A stretch of DNA of 64,000 nucleotides. It comes from an uncultured Bdellovibrio sp. (GTDB taxonomy: Bacteria; Bdellovibrionota; Bdellovibrionia; Bdellovibrionales; Bdellovibrionaceae). A program made the translations under genes and the position numbers. Positions 35,617 to 45,128 of the stretch are shown in pieces. Position 1 is the first letter of the stretch, and every line of letters starts with the position of its first letter. The stretch spans positions 224,001 through 288,000 of the forward strand of contig CAWVRN010000002.1 of NCBI GenBank assembly GCA_963932905.1, written 5' to 3'. A model generated the notes under the pieces. The model was given only the letters and a program-made list of their open reading frames with translations, made no database searches and was not told the DNA's origin.

Positions 35617-36534
35617 ATGTCAGGAAAAGACGATACAAACGAAAAAACGATGGTGGCATCGGATACCACCTTAAAAAAAGAATTACTTCGATCCGATAGT
35701 GCTCCTCCGATGCTTGTGGTTCTGATGGGACCGCCGGGATATCAAGGAAAACAGTGGGCGTTGACAGATGCGTTTGTAATTGGCCGTGCAATTGAATCTA
35801 ATGTATTTATCGACGATAAAAGTCTTTCACGATCGCATGCGCGCATCGATATCAAGGGTGACAAAGTTTACGTTGTCGATTTAGGTTCAACAAATAAGAC
35901 AATCGTGAACGGACAAATTCTTCCGCCCATGGTTTTGTGCGAATTAAAAAACAATGATCAAGTTAAAACGGGTAATGTTATTTTCAAGTTTCTAGAAACT
36001 GGAAATATTGAAGGCTTAACAACACAGATGTTGTTCGAAAAAGCGAACCGTGATGCTTTGACTGGCGCGTACTCGAAAGGGGCACTGCTTGAAAAAGGCC
36101 CTGAATCGATCAAGCGCTCTGAGGTTTTGAATGAAGCCCTAAGCGTAATTGTATTTGATATCGATTTTTTCAAGAAAATTAACGACAGCCACGGACATCC
36201 TTGTGGTGACTTCGTGCTAAAAGATATGGCTCGTGTTGTTTCAACAAAACTAATTCGTTCAAACGATTTTTTCGCACGTTATGGTGGTGAAGAATTCGTA
36301 CTGATTCTAAGCGGCACTCCAGACAAGGTAGCTGCAGAGATCGCAGAACGGATTCGTACAACGATCCAAAACCACGAGTTCAAATTCGATGGCAAGATAA
36401 TCCCAGTGACCGTTTCAGTTGGCGTCACCTCAAAACAACCCAACGATACTCAATGGCAATTCATCTTCGATCGCGTGGACAAAGCACTCTACACCTCAAA
36501 ACAAACAGGCCGAAATAAAGTCACCATCGGCTAA
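35617..36534 (+). CDS. dgcB: FHA-GGDEF diguanylate cyclase, DgcB-like
   Basis: N-terminal tail NEKTMVAS; FHA motifs IGR, SRSH, STN; DIDFFKKIND and RYGGEEF. Confidence 0.85.
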   Translation: MSGKDDTNEKTMVASDTTLKKELLRSDSAPPMLVVLMGPPGYQGKQWALTDAFVIGRAIESNVFIDDKSLSRSHARIDIKGDKVYVVDLGSTNKTIVNGQILPPMVLCELKNNDQVKTGNVIFKFLETGNIEGLTTQMLFEKANRDALTGAYSKGALLEKGPESIKRSEVLNEALSVIVFDIDFFKKINDSHGHPCGDFVLKDMARVVSTKLIRSNDFFARYGGEEFVLILSGTPDKVAAEIAERIRTTIQNHEFKFDGKIIPVTVSVGVTSKQPNDTQWQFIFDRVDKALYTSKQTGRNKVTIG

Positions 36535-37088
36535 AAGGTACCTCCTAACATTCTGGAGCCCGCAGCGTTAAACGCGCTGGATACCAGAATAGTAGGGGGG
36601 CTCAAGTCGCATCTGTATATAGATAGAGCAATCACGAAAAGACGAAAACGTAAACGGTACCTCAAACGGCTACGCCCAAAGGTTTTCCGGTCCGTCCACC
36701 GTGCACCAGCGTTTCGCGCAGATGCATTTTGGCTCTGTCAAAATTTTTTGCAAAATTAGCTGCGCTCAAGATTTGCCATAAAAAATTCTTATCCCAAACT
36801 GTTCATCTCAAACCAATACAATCTGATTTCCAGTGTCTAGAGTTTATCCAAACTTATACTTATGATTCGGGGTCAATTTGACCTTTTCTCGTTGGCCTTT
36901 GCGTTGCTTAGTAGATAAGCAGAGCGCGGGTTTGAATAAGAGGGCTATTTCCCGCGATCGAGTGAGTAGGCGCAGGTTTCATGAGGTGAATGAAAAAGGC
37001 GGCTAACCACTAGAAAGTAAAAAGGAAAATTTTTTTACTGAAAAAAATAGAAAAAATTAACCTAATTACCAAGTCGAGGGTCTAAACA

Positions 37089-37703
37089 ATGGGAAAAGAT
37101 TTACTAATCTTAACTGACAATGAGCTTGTGCAGGAGATTAAGACAGGAAACCGGAAAGCCTTCTCTGAGATCGTAAAGAGGCACCAAAAATCGTTGCTAC
37201 GTATGTCGCTTCGATTTGTAAAGGATTTAGATATGGCAGAAGACGTAGTCCAAGAAAGCTTCATCAAAGCGTTTGAAAAGCTAAATGCTTTCGAAGGACG
37301 TTCTTCTTTCAAAAGCTGGTTGTTCCAAATCGCAGTAAACACGGCGAAGAACAAACTGCGTGAACGTAGACGAGCAACGACGGATATTGATTCCGTACAG
37401 CTGGCGGTGGGAGCTGTGGCAGAATCATCGCTGGTACACTCGGCACTGTCACAAGAAATACAAGAAGAGATTGATAAGTTACCAACTAAACAACGAACCG
37501 CTTTGATCTTACGAGTATACGAAGATTTAAGCTTTAAGGAGATCGCAGATATTATGGAATGCCCATACGACACAGCGAAAGCTAATTACAGACATGCGTT
37601 GATGAAGTTAAAAGATAGTTTCGAACAAAAATCAGATATGAGTGTATCAGAATCATTTGGTGGTTTTTACTCTGAAGTCGCGCAATACGTGGAGGTTGAA
37701 TAA
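37089..37703 (+). CDS. ECF RNA polymerase sigma factor
   Basis: AEDVVQESF, SFKSWLFQIAVN, LSFKEIADIM. Confidence 0.92.
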   Translation: MGKDLLILTDNELVQEIKTGNRKAFSEIVKRHQKSLLRMSLRFVKDLDMAEDVVQESFIKAFEKLNAFEGRSSFKSWLFQIAVNTAKNKLRERRRATTDIDSVQLAVGAVAESSLVHSALSQEIQEEIDKLPTKQRTALILRVYEDLSFKEIADIMECPYDTAKANYRHALMKLKDSFEQKSDMSVSESFGGFYSEVAQYVEVE

Positions 37704-37704
37704 T

Positions 37705-38175
37705 ATGAACCCAAGAACTTTACCTCCAGATTTAAAACCGACGGAAAGAATGTTGAAACGACTTGAGGCCGCTGAGCCCGAACCGCAGTTGCCAGAGTCA
37801 GAAGATTATTACCAAATGTTGCATGATAAAATAATGGCGCAGGTGGAAACAAAGGAAATTAAACCGCCGCCTCCGCCGATCAGAAAAACTCAAGCTTTGT
37901 TAAAGCGTCACTGGCGCAACGGATTGTATCTAGTGACGATGAGTGCATTAGCCGCTGTTATCAGCGTGAAAACAGTAGGGAATATTGATACTCAAGTTAA
38001 TCAAAATCATGCCGTAATAAAATTCCAGAATGAAGACCAATTAATAGGTCTATTGAAAGATGCGCCGGAAGTTTTGGACAACACAGTGTTGTCCTCATAT
38101 AACTCTCAAGACTTAATGAGTGATGATCTATATTCAAATATAGACTTGACCAAAGATGTATTCGACTCGATGTAG
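37705..38175 (+). CDS. Putative single-pass anti-sigma factor
   Basis: Starts 1 bp after the sigma stop with GGAGG SD; PESEDYY..LHDKIM segment, one TM helix. Confidence 0.6.
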   Translation: MNPRTLPPDLKPTERMLKRLEAAEPEPQLPESEDYYQMLHDKIMAQVETKEIKPPPPPIRKTQALLKRHWRNGLYLVTMSALAAVISVKTVGNIDTQVNQNHAVIKFQNEDQLIGLLKDAPEVLDNTVLSSYNSQDLMSDDLYSNIDLTKDVFDSM

Positions 38176-38205
38176 ATTGCTTATATAAATTAACAAACTA
38201 AAAAT

Positions 38206-38242
38206 AGTAATAAGCCCTGAAGTACTTTCGGGGCTTATTACT
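38206..38242. terminator. Long hairpin abutting the next start codon
   Basis: AGTAATAAGCCCTGAA-gtact-TTCGGGGCTTATTACT, then TT-ATG. Confidence 0.6.
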
Positions 38243-38244
38243 TT

Positions 38245-38715
38245 ATGACATACACTAAAACTATTCTTGTTCTATTTTTCCTGAGTTTTTCTGCACTAGC
38301 AGAGGTCGATCGACAGGTTAAAAAATTCGAAGACTTGTTTATTTGGAAAATTTCAGATGAATTGAAACTGACACAAAAAGAAGAAACGATCGTTGCCGAA
38401 ATTGTCAAAGACACTAATAAAAAGAAACAACAGTCGAACGCGGACCTTGAGGCTTTATATAAAAAGCTAAACGAAGAAACGACGGAGTCAGGAAAAAGGA
38501 CGGCCTTTAACAAAATCAGAGCCCTTCATAAAGCGCAGCTGAATATTACTTTAGAAGAATTAGATCGCTTAAACAAAGGTGTAGGATTAAAGCGCCTAGG
38601 TCAGTACTTAGAAGTAAAACGAGATCTTTCAGAGAAAATCAAAAACGTTTGGTCACAAACGGAAAAAAAAGGCGACAAAGTGTTGCCGCCACCCAAAGTT
38701 ATCGAAGAGAAATAG
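38245..38715 (+). CDS. Periplasmic helical protein (Spy/CpxP-like), third gene of the ECF locus
   Basis: Signal peptide, ELKLTQKE motif, helical. Confidence 0.55.
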   Translation: MTYTKTILVLFFLSFSALAEVDRQVKKFEDLFIWKISDELKLTQKEETIVAEIVKDTNKKKQQSNADLEALYKKLNEETTESGKRTAFNKIRALHKAQLNITLEELDRLNKGVGLKRLGQYLEVKRDLSEKIKNVWSQTEKKGDKVLPPPKVIEEK

Positions 38716-38801
38716 AATTTCCAGGCAGTCAGCCCAGGCATCGGGCAGCCAGACATCTATAAGTATGGACTTAGATTTGATCTGACACTAGTTGAAGTAA
38801 T

Positions 38802-38906
38802 GGCACTTCTAGAAACGAGAGGCGAGGTTTGGAGCTTCGCCGTTCTTTCCTAGGAAGCGCCACAAAAAGCTAAGTGGTGCATGACCAAGTAGCGTATAGA
38901 AGTATT
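38802..38906 (+). repeat. 105-bp element, copy A (inverted relative to copy B)
   Basis: 38802-38898 is the exact reverse complement of 41075-41171, then 1 mismatch and 7 more matches. Confidence 0.97.
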
Positions 38907-39039
38907 TGTTTTTGGACCGGATTTTGAATTTGAAAATATAGTGTGAGTTTACGCCAATTGAGCTGGCTCTCTGCAATTTAAAATTGAGACTCAGTTAACA
39001 ACTGAAAAGCAATTTTCGGCTGTATCAAAAGGAGACATT

Positions 39040-40503
39040 ATGTTTGGTAACAAAACTACAATTACCTACGTGATAGTGCTGTTCAGCTTAAACATATTTT
39101 TTTTTGAAAATTCTTTTGCGCGAACCTCCCGAGAAGTGGTTAATGATAAATTTGAAAACGTTGGACTCATTCACAATCGCGGAAAAAATGTATGCACTGG
39201 AACAATCATAAAACATGGAGTTATTTTAACTGCAAAACATTGTTTTGGATCCCGTGAAGTTGGAGAACTTGGCGCAAGTCATCTTTCTGTCTCATTTATC
39301 TCTGCGAGATACCCACTAACAAAAGCTTTCTTAATTAATGGAAATGACATTAAAAGAATTGTTCCCGATACCGGAAACAATGATATAGCCTACATGCTCT
39401 ATGAACCCAAGGCTACTGAAGAAAAAATAGATTTAGTCGTTAGTCAGATTCAGCTTTCTGTTCCAAGTAAAGGAATGCCAGCCTTGATCATCGGCTATCC
39501 AACTCAAACCAATAACCCCGAACATTTATCAAAAATTATTTCAAGAAATTGCTCTTTTGACGGAGTTTCTTCTGAATACACCCAGATGGTTCTATCAAAT
39601 CAATATCACGGCAGACTCTACCAAACTTCCTGTGCCGGTTTTTATGGAAACTCAGGAGGACCAGTCATTATTCGTGACAATTTAAATCGTCTCAAGCTTA
39701 TTGGCGTCGTTGCACATACTTTTTCGGTTGATTCATTCGGCCAGATTCTCGAAAAGAGAATTGAAACAGATCCCTTCGGTCAATACATCGCCGATGCAAA
39801 TGTGTCTTTGCTTTCTGATGCAAAATCACTTTCTAATGTTTTATCCCTCGACATCACGAAAATTCATAACAACGCACTACTGAGTGATGAATTGACTCAA
39901 TTAGGCCCTCTCAGAGAATACAGATCATTTGATTTAGATTCGGATGCTTTTTCATTCTTTTATCCTCAGTTAAAAAAACCTGCATTAGATGAGTCTTTTG
40001 AAACCCAATCTGTTGAAAAAATCTTTCGACGGCGAAGCGAGTACGGTGATGCGAATTTAAACTGTTCCTCACAGTTTAACAGAGTTAAAGTTGCATTTGA
40101 TAACATTATTAAGAAGAACAAGCTGGAATCCAAATTCTCTGACGAAAATTTTTACGTAGCTTTGTCTTGCAACGGCCTGGGACCAGACGCCAACTATAGC
40201 TTTGGAGTTTTATTTCTAACTGGAGAAATCGTAAATCTTATGGATACCGACGGAAAATTAACTTGCTTGATTTCACACGAGTTGAGCCATCGTCTACTGA
40301 AACATGATCGTATTCGAGTTGGGCAAGCCCAGCAAGAGCTAGATGCGGACGCTCTGGCTACAATTTTAACGGTTCGCAGTGGCTATCGCAAACAAGACTG
40401 CCGTGATTTTGTTGGCGAGACTTCAGTTTTTGATGCTCACTTAGACGGGTATCCATCAAGCTTTGAAAGGCTGCTAAATATTAATAGGATGATTTTTCCT
40501 TAG
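39040..40503 (+). CDS. Secreted fusion of trypsin-like (S1) serine protease and M48-like zinc metallopeptidase
   Basis: Signal peptide; TAKHC, DIAY, GNSGGP; then HELSH..ELDAD; AAGGAG SD. Confidence 0.78.
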   Translation: MFGNKTTITYVIVLFSLNIFFFENSFARTSREVVNDKFENVGLIHNRGKNVCTGTIIKHGVILTAKHCFGSREVGELGASHLSVSFISARYPLTKAFLINGNDIKRIVPDTGNNDIAYMLYEPKATEEKIDLVVSQIQLSVPSKGMPALIIGYPTQTNNPEHLSKIISRNCSFDGVSSEYTQMVLSNQYHGRLYQTSCAGFYGNSGGPVIIRDNLNRLKLIGVVAHTFSVDSFGQILEKRIETDPFGQYIADANVSLLSDAKSLSNVLSLDITKIHNNALLSDELTQLGPLREYRSFDLDSDAFSFFYPQLKKPALDESFETQSVEKIFRRRSEYGDANLNCSSQFNRVKVAFDNIIKKNKLESKFSDENFYVALSCNGLGPDANYSFGVLFLTGEIVNLMDTDGKLTCLISHELSHRLLKHDRIRVGQAQQELDADALATILTVRSGYRKQDCRDFVGETSVFDAHLDGYPSSFERLLNINRMIFP

Positions 40504-40542
40504 CTTAAACCCCTGGCTATTTTCCAGAGTCGCTTTCGCTAC

Positions 40543-40686
40543 CTGAGCTTTTATGACCAGACGATGCAGGAATAGTTCCAACGTTTAAGCCAATTAGTGC
40601 TATTGAAGATTGGCCAATATTTGCATGAGGCCTGGCTCCACATATCAATAAGATCTTTCCGCGAAAGTCTGGTAACGAAAGCTCAG
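40543..40686. repeat. Imperfect inverted repeat between the two convergent cargo genes
   Basis: CTGAGCTTTTATGACCAGAC (40543-40562) vs reverse complement of 40667-40686, 17/20 identical; central palindrome ATTGGCCAAT at 40609-40618. Confidence 0.75.
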
Positions 40687-40722
40687 TCGACGACTACAAC
40701 TAAGCATTCAAAACTTAGGGTT

Positions 40723-41025
40723 TTAGGGGCACTGAACAGCATAAAGCTTTTGCGGATTTTCGTTTAGAGGAAGGCGCAAAGAATTACCAACCTTGTATTG
40801 ATCTGAAAAAGGATATTTCTCGCTTAAGATGATCTCGGCACCAAGACTACCTTTTGCAGGGTTAATTATTTTGTAGGTAACACCCATTTCCTCGTCTTTT
40901 ACGCAGCCACCAATTTTAAAGATAGTCTCAGCATTAGTTCCTACTGTTTGCTGAATGTAGTGGTTCAAAGTGAAATAGGTAACAGCGACGAGAACAATCA
41001 ATCCGATTATGATTTTTTTCAGCAT
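40723..41025 (-). CDS. Small membrane-anchored/secreted hypothetical protein with two Cys
   Basis: ATG 41025 (MLKKIIIG), N-terminal TM, GGC...QCP. Confidence 0.65.
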   Translation of the reverse strand: MLKKIIIGLIVLVAVTYFTLNHYIQQTVGTNAETIFKIGGCVKDEEMGVTYKIINPAKGSLGAEIILSEKYPFSDQYKVGNSLRLPLNENPQKLYAVQCP

Positions 41026-41066
41026 GTCTAAATGTATAATCAAGATTTAAATCTGTCCAGTAATCC

Positions 41067-41171
41067 AATACTTTTATACGCTACTTGGTCATGCACCACT
41101 TAGCTTTTTGTGGCGCTTCCTAGGAAAGAACGGCGAAGCTCCAAACCTCGCCTCTCGTTTCTAGAAGTGCC
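41067..41171 (-). repeat. 105-bp element, copy B
   Basis: Reverse complement of 38802-38906 with one mismatch. Confidence 0.97.
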
Positions 41172-41301
41172 CTATTCTTAGACGCAGTTACGGGAACTAA
41201 TGAAACTTAATGCCCATTATTTCTGGCTGTCTGATGAAACAGAAACCTATTGTCGGTAGTGTCGGATCGAATTTAAATTTCTGCACTACTTACGATAGGC
41301 A

Positions 41302-42885
41302 CTACTTAAGAAGTCCTTGTGCTAACAATTTCTTATAAAGCGCGCTATTTAATCCGTAATAGTCATCAAAGAACTGAATTTTATTTCCTGATTCCGCTAC
41401 CGTGAGGCTCACGATGTATATCGTTAACGGTTTGCTTAAACGAATTCCTGTGTCTTTTTCTATTTTCTGTCCTGGCTTTGCAACCGTCGCATCGATCTTT
41501 GCTCGTGTCCAAGTCGTACCCTTTAGAAGGTATTCGGCGAAATCCAGTGGTTTTTCTAAACGTACGCAACCAGAGCTTAATAGACGGTAGTTATTCTTAA
41601 ACAGATGACGATCGCCCGTATCATGCAAATAAATCGAATATCTATTTGTCATTGGGAACTTAACTACGCCCAAAGCATTGTCATAGCTTGGTTGCTGCAC
41701 GATTTGAAAATCGATGTTGTTGCGACTGACATTCGCCCAATCGATACTAGCGGGATCAACTTCCTGATCTGTCTTTAAATTGATAATTTTATAACCGTGT
41801 TGTTTTAGGTAGCCTGGATTTTTCTTCAAGATAGGAAGCTTATCTTTAAAGAAGATATTCATCGTCGCGGTCCACGTTGGATTCAAAATAACCGATTGGA
41901 CTTTGTCTTTCATTAACGGAGTTCTGCGGCTAGTTTGGCCACCGATAGCTTTAAACTGCATGATATAATCATTAGAGTTAATATCAGCGTCTTGCACATA
42001 AAACATTTGATTCGCTATATTGGCAATCGCATGTCTTGATTCAAGGACATCAGACATCCAGCGAACTTTTTCAAGGTTCAATTCAGTTTCGCGGACGCGA
42101 CTGCGTATTTCTGAATTGATCAAGCGCCATGTTTTTGAATCTTTACTTAAGCCTTTTTCAAATGGAACAGACAGATCCAATTGAATATTTTTTAAAACAG
42201 CATCAAATTCAGAGTCATACAGTGGGCTTTCATTAGAAATTCCGTACCCAAGCAAATTCAGCTTGGCCTTAATCGCCGCTACGGATGAATGAGATTGGCC
42301 AAATAGTATTGTATTGGTCGGTTTTTCAACAGTTACCCAAAGATTTCTATCTTCTATGTCGCTCAGGCGAGCGAGAACTTTTCTTAAGCCAGAATAAAAT
42401 TTATTTTTTGGAGCCACTTGATTGTACAAGTTTGCGAATGTCGCTGCAGAAACCGTCGTTAGTAAATTCCATTGAGTGAATGCTTTTGGTTCGTACTTAA
42501 CATCGTCATTGATTTTTCGAGGATCAATTCTACCACCGACTGTGTGAATGATTGATTTTAAAAGATTCTCAGCGACGAATAATTCAGTTTTTAAATCTGT
42601 TGGGCCATTTTGTTTAACAAGTTCAGTTATGTTCTGAAATTGGTAATCACCGGCGCTTAGGCCATGCGATTTAATAGCTGTTCGAATCGCCTCTAGGTCG
42701 CCCAAAGAAATGGCCCACTGTCCGTTGCGTGCAAAGATCGGTTCGAAATTTCTATTTTGATAAGTTTTTTTCAAATAGGTCGGCGCCGTTGGTGTTGTGG
42801 CGAAATAATTATTTAATTCTACGGCGGTCTGTGCGAATACGAAAGAACTTAATGCCGTGATGGCGATAAAAAGGCGTACTAACAT
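41302..42885 (-). CDS. L,D-transpeptidase (YcbB/LdtD-like) with scaffold and PG-binding domains
   Basis: NPTW, NALGVVKF, IYLHDT...SSGCVRL. Confidence 0.9.
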   Translation of the reverse strand: MLVRLFIAITALSSFVFAQTAVELNNYFATTPTAPTYLKKTYQNRNFEPIFARNGQWAISLGDLEAIRTAIKSHGLSAGDYQFQNITELVKQNGPTDLKTELFVAENLLKSIIHTVGGRIDPRKINDDVKYEPKAFTQWNLLTTVSAATFANLYNQVAPKNKFYSGLRKVLARLSDIEDRNLWVTVEKPTNTILFGQSHSSVAAIKAKLNLLGYGISNESPLYDSEFDAVLKNIQLDLSVPFEKGLSKDSKTWRLINSEIRSRVRETELNLEKVRWMSDVLESRHAIANIANQMFYVQDADINSNDYIMQFKAIGGQTSRRTPLMKDKVQSVILNPTWTATMNIFFKDKLPILKKNPGYLKQHGYKIINLKTDQEVDPASIDWANVSRNNIDFQIVQQPSYDNALGVVKFPMTNRYSIYLHDTGDRHLFKNNYRLLSSGCVRLEKPLDFAEYLLKGTTWTRAKIDATVAKPGQKIEKDTGIRLSKPLTIYIVSLTVAESGNKIQFFDDYYGLNSALYKKLLAQGLLK

Positions 42886-42887
42886 AC

Positions 42888-43175
42888 CTATTCCGCCTTC
42901 AAGACGTTAAGTTTGTTGTCCGTCGTAATCTTGATAATAGTCTTTTGACTTTGGCTTTTTGAAAGTACGGAAAGAACCGCTTCAAAATTTGGAGCTTTGT
43001 TATCTAAATACAAAACTTGAGACGCATTTTTTAAAACGATGATTTTTCCATCGTCGTCTTCTTTGATTTTTAGAACAGTATCCGTAACAAGCGATGCTAA
43101 GTTATTAGCAAGCGCATCTGAAATGCCGAAGAAGAAGATAATCAACATCGAAATGGCAAATAAAAAATATTTCAT
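42888..43175 (-). CDS. Small secreted hypothetical protein coupled to the LDT gene
   Basis: Signal peptide (..ALA); stop 2 bp before the LDT start. Confidence 0.65.
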   Translation of the reverse strand: MKYFLFAISMLIIFFFGISDALANNLASLVTDTVLKIKEDDDGKIIVLKNASQVLYLDNKAPNFEAVLSVLSKSQSQKTIIKITTDNKLNVLKAE

Positions 43176-43250
43176 AGTGACCCCAATTTGGAGTCACATA
43201 TAGCGCGAACTTTAAATTAATTGTATTACGGAATCACGGGTTGGAAAAAA

Positions 43251-45128
43251 TTACTTAAGGATAATTAGTTTGCGAATCACACATTTACGGATATCCCCAA
43301 GCAATTTAGTCATTTCTGGGCTTTCGAATTCTTCCTGTAACACCCTTGGTTTTAATACTGTGATCACGTCATGAATTTGAATGGCCTTCGACTTTTGAGT
43401 TACCTTTCGGTCAAAGGCAATCCAAGGCGATTTAAACCCGCAGCTCAGCTTATTTGTGCCTTGGCTAGAGGCATCTTTGAACGAAATGATATATTCAGAA
43501 ACCCTTGGGTAACTAAGTCCCAGGTCAGTGAATCTTTTATCCACTCGATCAGCGATTTGCGATAGGGCCTGGTTTTCCCATAAAAGAAACCCTACACCCT
43601 GATTGGATTCATAGAAGGCATTCATTTCTTTGAATTCGTAGCTGAATTCAAGGTCGCGTGTGATCCGCGACATCAACGAAAATGGTGTGAATTTTACATC
43701 CGTGACTGTTTTCACATTGCTTGCTGTCCATTCAAGTAAACGGAATTGAAGGGAATCCAAAGACGACCGCAGTTGATCTCCGGTCCATTCCGTCGCGGCA
43801 ACTCCTGACAAATTCAGTTTAGTTTTGACGTGGACATACGGTTTTTTTACGTCGGCGTATTCAACTTGAATGACAGTGCGATTCTTTTTGTAGTCTGTAG
43901 GAGGAATGTCTTTTTCGCGCGGATTTTCAGGGTCTAAAAGGACGGCTACGCGACCGGAAATATCAGGCAGTGGTTCTTTAGTGAAAACCATGCTATTCGT
44001 TGCATCTAGCCAGCGGGGCTTGCCTTGAATTTCAACGTACGTGATGGCGTGATTTTGAACTTTTGTGCTTGGTAATTTTGGATTTTCAAACTGCATGTTA
44101 TCGCCGCGATAGACCCAAGCGACATAACTTTTGTAGCCCAGTTTTCTAAGTATGGCGGCAAGTGATGCTGAATAGTCTTTGCAATCGCCGTAACCGCTGC
44201 GAGCAATTTCAGCTAGTGGGCGAGGTATCATCGCGCCTTTTACACTGCGCCAGTCACCCAAATATCGAATGTGAGTTTGCAGGCGATCAATAATGAGTTC
44301 CATACGGTCCTCATCGCTTTTCAGTTTTTTTGCATCTTGATAAATCTTCTCGTGCATTTCGGGTAATGGTTCATTCAAAACAAGTTCATGGCTGGTCGTG
44401 ATAGACTTCATCATTTCCTTCGACCACGTTTTTTCGGACGATATTTCAATATGTGGGACAAGTCGTCGAGTTAAATAGGAATCTTTTTCTTCCACTGGGT
44501 TAATGTAAATTGGCTTTTTCTGACTGACATTAATATAGAATTTGCCCTTTTCTGTTTTGGCTTCTACGGCCAAGGAATCTATCTTGTCGCTGATGCTGTA
44601 AAATATCGGCATTTCGCTTTCGATGTATAGATTTTGCTTAATCGAATTCTCGCGCCAACCAAAATATTCAATTGTTCCAAAATAGTTATCAACCGACAGA
44701 GTGTGGGTTTCCATGTTCATTTTAAAATACAGTACTGATCCGACTTGAACGTTAGGAAAGGCTATAGAAACTTGGTTGTCGTTATCGAAGCCGTCTTTGC
44801 TGGACGCCAGGGGCTTATCTTCAATGGAATTGCTTTCGACTTTAGAAATGGAATCCCCATTTTTGGTATACGCTTCGATGCTAGTGATTTTTGATAAATA
44901 TGGTGGATAGGTAAATTTGTAGAAACCAAATTCGCGTCGGCCGGTTTCATTTAGAATTTCAACTTCAAATTCGGAAACACTTTTGTAATGGCCGCTCTTT
45001 TTAACTTGATAGTATTGATTCACTTGAAGAAATTTATGACTGGCTTCTTCGGGTCGCTGTAGCCGGGCTTTTGCCGAAGGTGAGAAAATAAATATCAGTA
45101 ATAGGGTAAGAGCAATCAAATGTTTCAT
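43251..45128 (-). CDS. DUF3857 + transglutaminase-like domain protein
   Basis: AFPNVQVGS, IRY, GDCKD, NHAI, WLDAT. Confidence 0.85.
   Translation of the reverse strand: MKHLIALTLLLIFIFSPSAKARLQRPEEASHKFLQVNQYYQVKKSGHYKSVSEFEVEILNETGRREFGFYKFTYPPYLSKITSIEAYTKNGDSISKVESNSIEDKPLASSKDGFDNDNQVSIAFPNVQVGSVLYFKMNMETHTLSVDNYFGTIEYFGWRENSIKQNLYIESEMPIFYSISDKIDSLAVEAKTEKGKFYINVSQKKPIYINPVEEKDSYLTRRLVPHIEISSEKTWSKEMMKSITTSHELVLNEPLPEMHEKIYQDAKKLKSDEDRMELIIDRLQTHIRYLGDWRSVKGAMIPRPLAEIARSGYGDCKDYSASLAAILRKLGYKSYVAWVYRGDNMQFENPKLPSTKVQNHAITYVEIQGKPRWLDATNSMVFTKEPLPDISGRVAVLLDPENPREKDIPPTDYKKNRTVIQVEYADVKKPYVHVKTKLNLSGVAATEWTGDQLRSSLDSLQFRLLEWTASNVKTVTDVKFTPFSLMSRITRDLEFSYEFKEMNAFYESNQGVGFLLWENQALSQIADRVDKRFTDLGLSYPRVSEYIISFKDASSQGTNKLSCGFKSPWIAFDRKVTQKSKAIQIHDVITVLKPRVLQEEFESPEMTKLLGDIRKCVIRKLIILK

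Follow-up and report, generated by a model that had tools for sequence, protein, structure and literature searches.

A probable pair of transposase-less gene cassettes with IS481-type ends in an uncultured Bdellovibrio sp.

Integron cassettes are compact units with a single open reading frame (ORF) whose 3' end carries an imperfect palindrome, and they form arrays of unrelated accessory genes. Mobile insertion cassettes (MICs), as presented in PMC4337579, carry passenger genes without a transposase between inverted repeats related to insertion sequences (IS) or transposons, the cognate transposase acting in trans; the examples given include MIC231 of Bacillus cereus and the TnXax1-related MICs of Xanthomonas, and both solo ends and clusters of units occur. 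PMC13367494 describes composite structures in which cargo lies between two Tn3-derived miniature elements, again with the transposase in trans. Here we analyse a block of two genes bracketed by inverted repeats (38762-41285) in a 64,000-nt stretch of the genome of an uncultured Bdellovibrio sp. (assembly GCA_963932905.1, contig CAWVRN010000002.1, positions 224,001-288,000 of the forward strand; hereafter the window, whose own numbering is used for all window positions). The genome (G000) comprises 4.55 Mb in 58 contigs, designated by C-numbers, and its relatives are designated G001-G009. We conclude, with a probability of about 0.65, that the block consists of two transposase-less cassettes of an IS481-derived family, placed tail to tail.

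The inverted repeat and its family of units

An original prediction, made from the sequence alone, had singled out a 105-bp sequence recurring in inverted orientation at the two sides of the block. The repeat is real: a repeat search returned arms of 137 nt at 38802-38938 and 41035-41171 (89% identity), and their 105-nt cores are identical at 104 of 105 positions (99% by BLAST). Each core lies upstream of, and co-directional with, a different gene. Public contigs assembled independently run from the left flank into the left core (38202-38828) and across the entire right copy (38971-41900). They thus support the right copy and the left flank-to-core junction; the interval 38829-38970, with the remainder of the left core and the start of the passage to gene 1, is uncovered.

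A BLAST search of the whole genome found seven copies of the core, at 100, 99, 93, 76, 75, 73 and 68% identity. Alignment of their surroundings revealed a conserved region, U, of ~95 nt upstream of the core, which starts with TGTAGAAACTTAAATTCGATCTGACAC, contains a second ..TCATCGGACA.. repeat ~33 nt further in and ends with GAAATAATGGC. A profile of U matched 13 copies at E<1e-8, and a profile of the whole unit matched 24 units at E<=2.6e-4 among 35 rows. U is absent from nine of these 24, among them two degenerate units in the window that hold the second motif, 3' of each gene, described in the original prediction. That motif, returned by the repeat search as an inverted pair of 20 nt (40543-40562 and 40667-40686, 85%), is also real and belongs to the partner element of the 105-nt core. 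The units are of two types, set by what follows GAAATAATGG: GGCAC in type L, to which the window's 105-nt core belongs, and GGCCAAT in type R. All 11 L units among the 24 examined lie 5' of a co-directional gene; this gene is the next ORF in ten of them, starting 44-319 nt from the anchor, and in the remaining one (c4) an unrelated IS481-like IS has inserted between the core and its 107-aa gene, so that the transposase of this IS comes first. Conversely, a convergent stop codon follows each of the 11 R units, at 103-142 nt in ten and at 354 nt in one, and two mixed units (c6 and C12:53895) are also found at the 3' ends of genes. The conserved inner motif of R (..TAGGG/TAGTGG..) comes within 0-7 nt of the stop codon in at least six of 13 R units.

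These units are arranged in pairs. Nine inward-facing pairs within 3 kb use 18 of the 24 units and enclose one to three genes each, whereas random placement predicts 0.09 pairs (P(>=3) = 5e-5, by simulation). The same architecture is seen at eight further places, where the repeats have diverged; the proposed organisation of 5' element, cargo and 3' element is therefore a recurrent one, with L in front of variable genes and R as the 3' partner. Two pairs have a full U with its terminal inverted repeat (TIR) at both ends (C7:98556..100072 and C38:18451..19504). Elsewhere cassettes stand side by side, three on C12 (50.6-54.6 kb) and two in the window, and in both arrays U and the TIR occupy the outermost ends and the inner junctions are U-less palindromes of two R units. 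Four such junctions, centred on ATTGGCCAAT, were found, one in the window, two on C12 and one on C9, at positions ranging from 56 to 76 of the model. In the window, the two R units (40623->40507 on the minus strand and 40606->40735 on the plus strand) stand head to head around this common palindromic centre, and the R motif aaaatagccaggggtttaag immediately precedes the complement of the gene 1 stop codon. With two L and two R units placed tail to tail, the window block reads as two L-gene-R cassettes.

We also scanned the 100-450 nt inside each unit with a position-weight matrix against 2,000 random windows. [quoted passage not shown] A search of the genome contigs with a loosened terminal-repeat pattern gave 119 loci, two of which matched the U profile. 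Among the 41 genomes searched by BLAST, G000 included, the family is restricted to the genus, being present in five of the nine other species (G002, G003, G005, G006 and G008) and in none of the 31 genomes from other genera of the family and order; matching public contigs are labelled as Bdellovibrio or Pseudobdellovibrionaceae metagenome-assembled genomes (MAGs).

Two individual units deserve separate mention. At L034:1431-2191 of G006, an L...R pair of 760 bp has a 106-aa ORF as its sole content, and this ORF is itself bracketed by a further pair of inverted repeats (CAAAC.GTCA..GTTCCTGG..), which looks like a nested insertion. In G000, a unit at a contig end (C49:14200-14265) runs into a tandem GATGAGAT-type repeat that probably caused the assembly break. 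As for the core, a short coding frame (ATGGCAC...) was considered and rejected, by eye: stop codons interrupt it in c5 and c7 and c2 has no ATG.

Termini, insertion sites and cargo

The outer ends of the units connect the family to a complete IS. Of nine matches of the Pfam rve domain in G000, two on C3 lie exactly between paired short matches of the U profile and correspond to two IS copies (Table 1), 85% identical in DNA and 92% in protein. Their protein scores 279 bits against the NCBIfam transpos_IS481 equivalog model (cutoff 224), and their 27-bp TIRs have the form TGTAGAAGTT(A/T)(A/G)GA(C/T)TTGATCTGACA(C/G). Thirteen of the 14 unit termini of G000 that were compared are identical to these TIRs at 18-27 of 27 positions, the exception being c7 (12/27); twelve score 19-27, with uC12b at 27/27 and c5 and c9 at 25/27, and uC38b scores 18. 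In the window, the left terminus (c1) matches the right TIR of IS copy B, with positions 10-26 identical by eye, and the right one (c2) departs from the search pattern TGTAGAAACTTAAATTCGATCTGACAC at three positions. Directly beside unit uC7c lies a remnant, 87 nt long, of the right end of the IS. Outside G000, the IS is present in five other members of the genus (G001, G004, G007, G008 and G009), so that its co-occurrence with the units is shown for G000 and G008 only. The copy in G001, its one clean insertion in a relative, is flanked by a perfect 7-bp duplication, AATAAAC.

These termini change the reading of the block's ends. The original prediction had compared GGCACT with the ends of IS6-family elements, using an IS26 end as quoted there. 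In a fuzzy TIR search the unit termini start with TGT, TGC or AGT, and the GGCACTGTTGCAAA-like GGCACT is internal, 40 nt inside the start of the left TIR, 114 nt inside the right one and ~75 nt in a typical unit. Being the first bases of the inner core and not a terminus, GGCACT makes the IS6/IS26 resemblance misplaced. In agreement with the same prediction, no transposase was found in the window, by Pfam or by tblastn with the IS transposase, and tblastn detected none in any U-bearing locus fetched; the cognate IS is that on C3. The rve gene beside c4 on C20 was rejected as a partner transposase because it belongs to a different IS481-like IS with TIRs of its own. This unrelated IS (C20:39773-41086, L057) encodes a 404-aa rve protein with weak family scores between TIRs of the type TTGAAyCATA..TAAATGATAC, and it has homologues at contig ends in G001 and also in G007. 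A search for TniB gave one weak match only, within a 1,292-aa frame.

Comparison with relatives revealed empty sites at three loci, an indirect sign in favour of mobilisation. The genes flanking the window block, a 156-aa gene and a YkuD-type L,D-transpeptidase (LDT) gene, are on the same contig in four relatives, with gaps between them of 92 nt in G006, 15 nt in G001, 3.7 kb in G008 and 2.5 kb in G009. G006 and G001 thus have empty sites, and the window cargo is accessory, as had been supposed. In G008 (C185, L049) and G009 (C92, L050) the site is occupied by two other genes (~650 and ~510 aa) and no U unit, which makes it a hotspot for accessory DNA. At the c7 locus, G006 and G003 align up to position 1543 of the query and resume at 2621 with 23 nt between, and the G000 cassette runs from TIR to TIR at 1552-2605; its flanks are CATTAGC and CACTAGT (5/7) and the empty site reads AACTAGA. 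The insert at the c5 locus is also absent from G003 and G006. Here, a perfect 7-bp ATTATTT flanks C7:98458-100157, and the relatives' site has a single-copy TTATTTT. No duplications were found at the ends of L034 in G006 or of L070. Finally, inverted U-type ends with 21-22 of 27 positions identical to the IS TIR occur on a contig of 55% GC that is labelled Woeseiaceae, and two metagenome contigs show the same arrangement; the ends bracket ~2.2 kb with a predicted helix-turn-helix regulator, MerR-like when read by eye, and three small ORFs. Ends of the same type around unrelated cargo on a contig labelled as another phylum point to horizontal spread.

The cargo is diverse. The gene 1 protein has an N-terminal hydrophobic leader, a trypsin-like domain (Trypsin, E=7.8e-15) and a weak Peptidase_M48 match (E=1.8e-4); no close homologue was found in 40 other genomes of the family, a sample with one other species of this genus, and the best match has 31% identity. 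The gene 2 protein begins with a hydrophobic segment and matches no Pfam family. Outside the window, eight of 13 cargo proteins scanned lack a Pfam family; the others are an ABM monooxygenase, a LysR regulator, an RDD protein and a fatty-acid desaturase, the last in two frames. Most cargo proteins start with hydrophobic, signal-peptide-like N-termini. The desaturase cargo (C12:50747-51736) is split into frames of 150 and 143 aa and is therefore probably a pseudogene; its 5' unit on C12 has lost the L core, which the orthologous locus of G003 (L032) retains. Metatranscriptome contigs (X12, 95-99% alike) cover gene 1 only, and DNA carry-over is possible, so that expression does not follow from them. 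A riverine-metagenome contig (run X6) identical to gene 1 departs from the window at 40514, where the R unit has its inner edge 11 nt past the stop codon, so that in another population the 3' neighbour of gene 1 is a different one.

The modules around the cargo carry expression-like signals. The similarity between the arms that the original prediction had seen extending inward (TGGAC..GATTT..) is genuine and coincides with both sigma-70-like promoter matches. Promoter-like sites are not enriched in the region (six versus a mean of 6.4 in shuffled sequences) and terminator-like sites are (eight versus 2.3). Both window cores hold a terminator-like hairpin, GGCGAGG..CTTCGCC, followed by GTTCTTTCCT, which the consensus scan places at 38821-38841 in the left copy. 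From these positions, we infer that L would serve as promoter and leader and R as terminator. A structured RNA or riboswitch in the core was not supported. Rfam gave no family on the cores at E<=10 (36000-44000, permissive thresholds), and rows elsewhere had a best E of 2.1. Single sequences folded with z = -2.1 on the plus strand and -4.5 on the minus strand, and the minimum-free-energy structures of individual units disagree. RNAalifold on ten L cores produced a weak consensus of -5.4 kcal/mol with a covariation term of +0.7. A candidate closing helix was paired at 73.5% across 33 units versus 71.0% in shuffles, 20 of 500 shuffles being as high, so that column composition is enough to explain this signal.

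Table 1 Features of the window block and copies of the related IS (TIR, terminal inverted repeat; LDT, L,D-transpeptidase gene)
Feature	Coordinates	Strand	Evidence or remark
Outer TIR of left unit c1, 27 bp	38762..38788	+	fuzzy TIR search
Shortened subterminal region U of c1	38789..38801	+	unit alignment; profile match begins at model position 44
L-type core (GGCAC type), left copy	38802..38906	+	repeat search, BLAST
Sigma-70-like promoter match TGGACC-18-TATAGT facing gene 1	38913..38942	+	consensus match only
Cargo gene 1, 487 aa	39040..40503	+	Pfam
R-type unit (GGCCAAT type, no U/TIR), inner end abutting gene 1 stop	40507..40623	-	whole-unit profile, E=3e-5
R-type unit (no U/TIR), abutting gene 2 stop	40606..40735	+	whole-unit profile, E=2.6e-4
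Cargo gene 2, small protein	40723..41025	-	ORF list 40723-41043 from TTG; probable ATG 41025
Sigma-70-like promoter match TGGACA-17-TACATT facing gene 2	41031..41059	-	consensus scan
L-type core, right copy	41067..41171	-	repeat search, BLAST 99%
Subterminal region U of c2, holding second repeat R2 GAAATAATGGG	41172..41258	-	unit alignment, profiles
Outer TIR of right unit c2, 27 bp	41259..41285	-	fuzzy TIR search
7-bp direct repeat CTACTTA, with copies at 41286-41292 and 41302-41308 separated by 9 nt	41286..41308	+	sequence; between TIR and LDT stop codon
IS copies, 1,224 bp each, intact 350-aa frame each	C3:27890-29113 and C3:190772-191995		

Upstream of the block, 37089-38715 holds a gene for an extracytoplasmic function (ECF) sigma factor (Pfam Sigma70_r2/r4_2/ECF), a 177-aa ORF without family, a terminator-like inverted repeat (38206-38242) and the conserved 156-aa gene; in relatives the block does not belong to the ECF operon. 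The CTACTTA repeat on the right extends to 10 nt on the other strand (TAAGTAGTGC), taking in the first three bases of the TIR.

Explanations for the block

In the explanation that we favour, a full cassette would start with a 27-bp IS481-type TIR followed by ~70 nt of subterminal U, in which a second copy of the inner CTGACA motif of the TIR is a probable second transposase site. The L module would come next, with the GGCAC core of ~105 nt and its terminator-like hairpin and then the sigma-70-like promoter facing a single cargo ORF; an inverted R module abutting the stop codon, a second U and a second TIR would complete it. The window pair would have lost both inner U/TIR ends, with the R modules meeting at the palindrome centred on ATTGGCCAAT. 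Only the outer TIRs remain, so that the pair would move as one 2.5-kb unit, mobilised in trans by the transposase of the IS481 family (350 aa) for which C3 has two genes, a mode of action that we consider plausible. U-less junctions could come from the deletion of the long palindrome formed where two cassettes abut end to end. The 99% identity is limited to the cores and the U regions beside them have diverged (c1 lacks the usual ~45 nt between its two CTGACA repeats and c2 has ~43 nt extra before the core), a pattern that probably reflects recent gene conversion or duplication between the inverted L cores.

Several observations weigh against this explanation. At the window itself, the TIRs are degenerate (20/27 in c1 and 21/27 in c2) and the U of c1 is truncated, so that this copy may be immobile. 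Its ends carry no target duplication, as already noted in the original prediction (ATCTATA on the left, CTACTTA on the right); the CTACTTA repeat has the length of the 7-bp duplication of the IS, yet both its copies are on one side of the block. Moreover, the 47-nt left spacer (38716-38762) matches the 92-nt empty-site spacer of G006 (C112, L047) only in reverse complement (28/36), which points to an inversion or to a history of insertion that was more complex. This spacer includes the left copy (38739-38756) of an 18-mer that had been described as similarity extending outward from the repeat: the similarity exists (14/18), with that copy outside the left TIR and homologous, inverted, to the spacer of G006. 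A simple insertion does not explain the inverted spacer. Beyond the window, the units and the IS have only the 27-bp TIR in common, with no shared sequence further in, and neither IS copy of G000 has a flanking duplication. The clean ATTATTT duplication surrounds a larger segment, in which the c5 cassette follows a degenerate TIR-like left end and precedes the 87-nt right-end remnant of the IS; it therefore belongs to this composite and not to the TIRs of the cassette itself. No copy of the IS was found in the unit-carrying G002, G003, G005 and G006, and three IS-carrying genomes gave no BLAST match to the units, all of them draft MAGs, in which repeats often go unassembled. Contigs from four sequencing runs showed no alternative joints, inversions or deletions at the block, and no mobilisation was observed. 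Finally, R abuts stop codons with a regularity beyond that predicted by haphazard capture.

Because haphazard capture leaves this abutment unexplained, it keeps alive a stronger form of the cassette idea, to which we give little chance: L and R would be more than decayed IS ends and form the working parts of a cassette system, one that captures each single ORF with precision between an L with its promoter and a stop-abutting R, joins cassettes at GGCC-centred palindromes and has entire arrays moved through their outer TIRs by a DDE transposase of the IS481 family. If so, it would be integron-like in function, with a transposase in place of an integrase, and would shuffle secreted accessory proteins of a predator. 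About equally improbable is an integron-like system proper, with ORFs captured and concatenated by site-specific recombination at a palindromic GAAATAATGG|CCATTATTTC junction and IS481 TIRs only moving the array. The U-less R junctions of the window, C12 and C9, the R motif close to stop codons and the unrelated cargo from cassette to cassette are what one would expect from it. However, the junctions vary in position, which fits the deletion of an unstable long palindrome too, contigs of the four runs contain neither circular nor alternative junctions, and no cassette has any of the genome's ten tyrosine-recombinase or 14 serine-recombinase matches within 5 kb, the closest one being ~6 kb from a unit on C4. 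The ten Phage_integrase matches avoid C2, C7, C9, C12, C20 and C38, attC models not being part of the search. Of the fourteen Resolvase-domain matches, ten belong to large serine recombinases with open frames of 566-636 aa, a high number for 4.5 Mb that hints at another mobile-element family. Recombination between the 105-bp inverted repeats, making the block an invertible DNA switch, is the most doubtful of the alternatives. The near-perfect repeat around 2.1 kb and the spacer to its left, inverted relative to G006, are reminiscent of such a switch, but no recombinase is encoded in or beside the block, eight other places show the same architecture although their repeats have diverged, and the four runs, whose contigs drop rare variants, gave neither joints nor opposite-orientation contigs; the invertible segment mentioned in the original prediction thus left no trace.

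Host regulatory modules offer another, unlikely, explanation. L would be a shared promoter with a 5' leader RNA and R a shared 3' untranslated region or terminator, both belonging to a regulon of secreted proteins and duplicated and homogenised by gene conversion; the likeness to IS TIRs would be secondary, for example if IS target these sequences or have borrowed them. Such modules would account for the strict position rule, the promoter-like and terminator-like matches within L, a -35-like CTGACA in the TIR that precedes TATATT/TATACT by 16 nt in some units (by eye), the near-identical cores next to diverged flanks and the frequent hydrophobic leaders on cargo that mostly lacks a Pfam family. 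They would not account for entire TIR-bounded cassettes being present or absent between relatives, the 7-bp duplication at the c5 locus, TIR identity of up to 27/27 with the IS or the same ends around unrelated cargo on the 55%-GC contig; one regulon would hardly combine a LysR regulator and an RDD protein with a broken desaturase, and the RNA tests on the cores (Rfam, RNAalifold and helix pairing) bring no support. We also disfavour, somewhat more strongly, independent insertions of a small repeat at either side of genes to which it has no functional tie. The repeat is indeed multi-copy, intergenic, restricted to the genus and graded in divergence, as such insertions would be, but a second TIR rises above background in a single unit, all 22 typed units follow the rule of L at the 5' side and R at the 3' side, and the nine inward pairs far exceed the 0.09 expected.

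Meaning and comparison with described systems

If the block and its relatives are transposase-less cassettes derived from IS481, this Bdellovibrio-like genus would carry at least nine of them per genome. Their cargo, mostly uncharacterised proteins with signal-peptide-like N-termini, would be a natural place for variable predation or envelope factors, and their L and R ends of ~200 bp, with apparent promoter and terminator, would amount to ready-made expression cassettes movable by an IS481-family transposase. The original prediction had proposed an unknown cassette system or, alternatively, a MITE-bounded composite. It is partly borne out: the predicted architecture stands, and of its alternatives the non-autonomous cassette or MITE-bounded composite, mobilised in trans, comes closer; the unknown system does not stand, since the termini are those of a known IS, the TIRs of an IS481-family element, which the prediction itself had named as a ground for refutation. 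We found no description of such a family in the literature on IS481 with MITEs or on Bdellovibrio with IS or MITEs, a narrow search in which IS481 and 'mobile insertion cassette' were not combined; in the passage of PMC9769881 that concerns it, IS481 is a table entry only.

Compared with IS481-family IS, the cassettes have in common outer 27-bp ends that begin with TGT and match the TIRs of the 1,224-bp IS, and they differ in having no transposase and no common sequence beyond the TIR. They resemble the MITE composites of PMC13367494 in that cargo is bracketed by two non-autonomous repeats derived from IS or transposons; the bounding elements there are complete MITEs with two TIRs, whereas the units here have one TIR each and are of two end types. 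The likeness to integron cassettes with their attC sites extends to compact single-ORF cassettes, a palindrome 3' of the ORF and arrays of unrelated cargo. It ends at the lack of a nearby integrase, the promoter-like module that each cassette has of its own, the convergent genes at the junctions and the outer TIRs of a DDE transposon. The closest parallel is that with MICs: the window block has passenger genes and no transposase, its inverted repeats are IS-related and the genome contains frames for the cognate IS transposase; the window copy lacks a target-site duplication. The parent is an IS481-family element here and IS231 or Tn3 there, the conserved ends reach ~200 bp, with a promoter-bearing L unlike the stop-abutting R, and the cassettes, known from sequence alone, are concatenated at U-less palindromic junctions. 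For the study of mobile DNA, they would thus add to the MICs an IS481-derived family of unusually orderly architecture, within an existing category.

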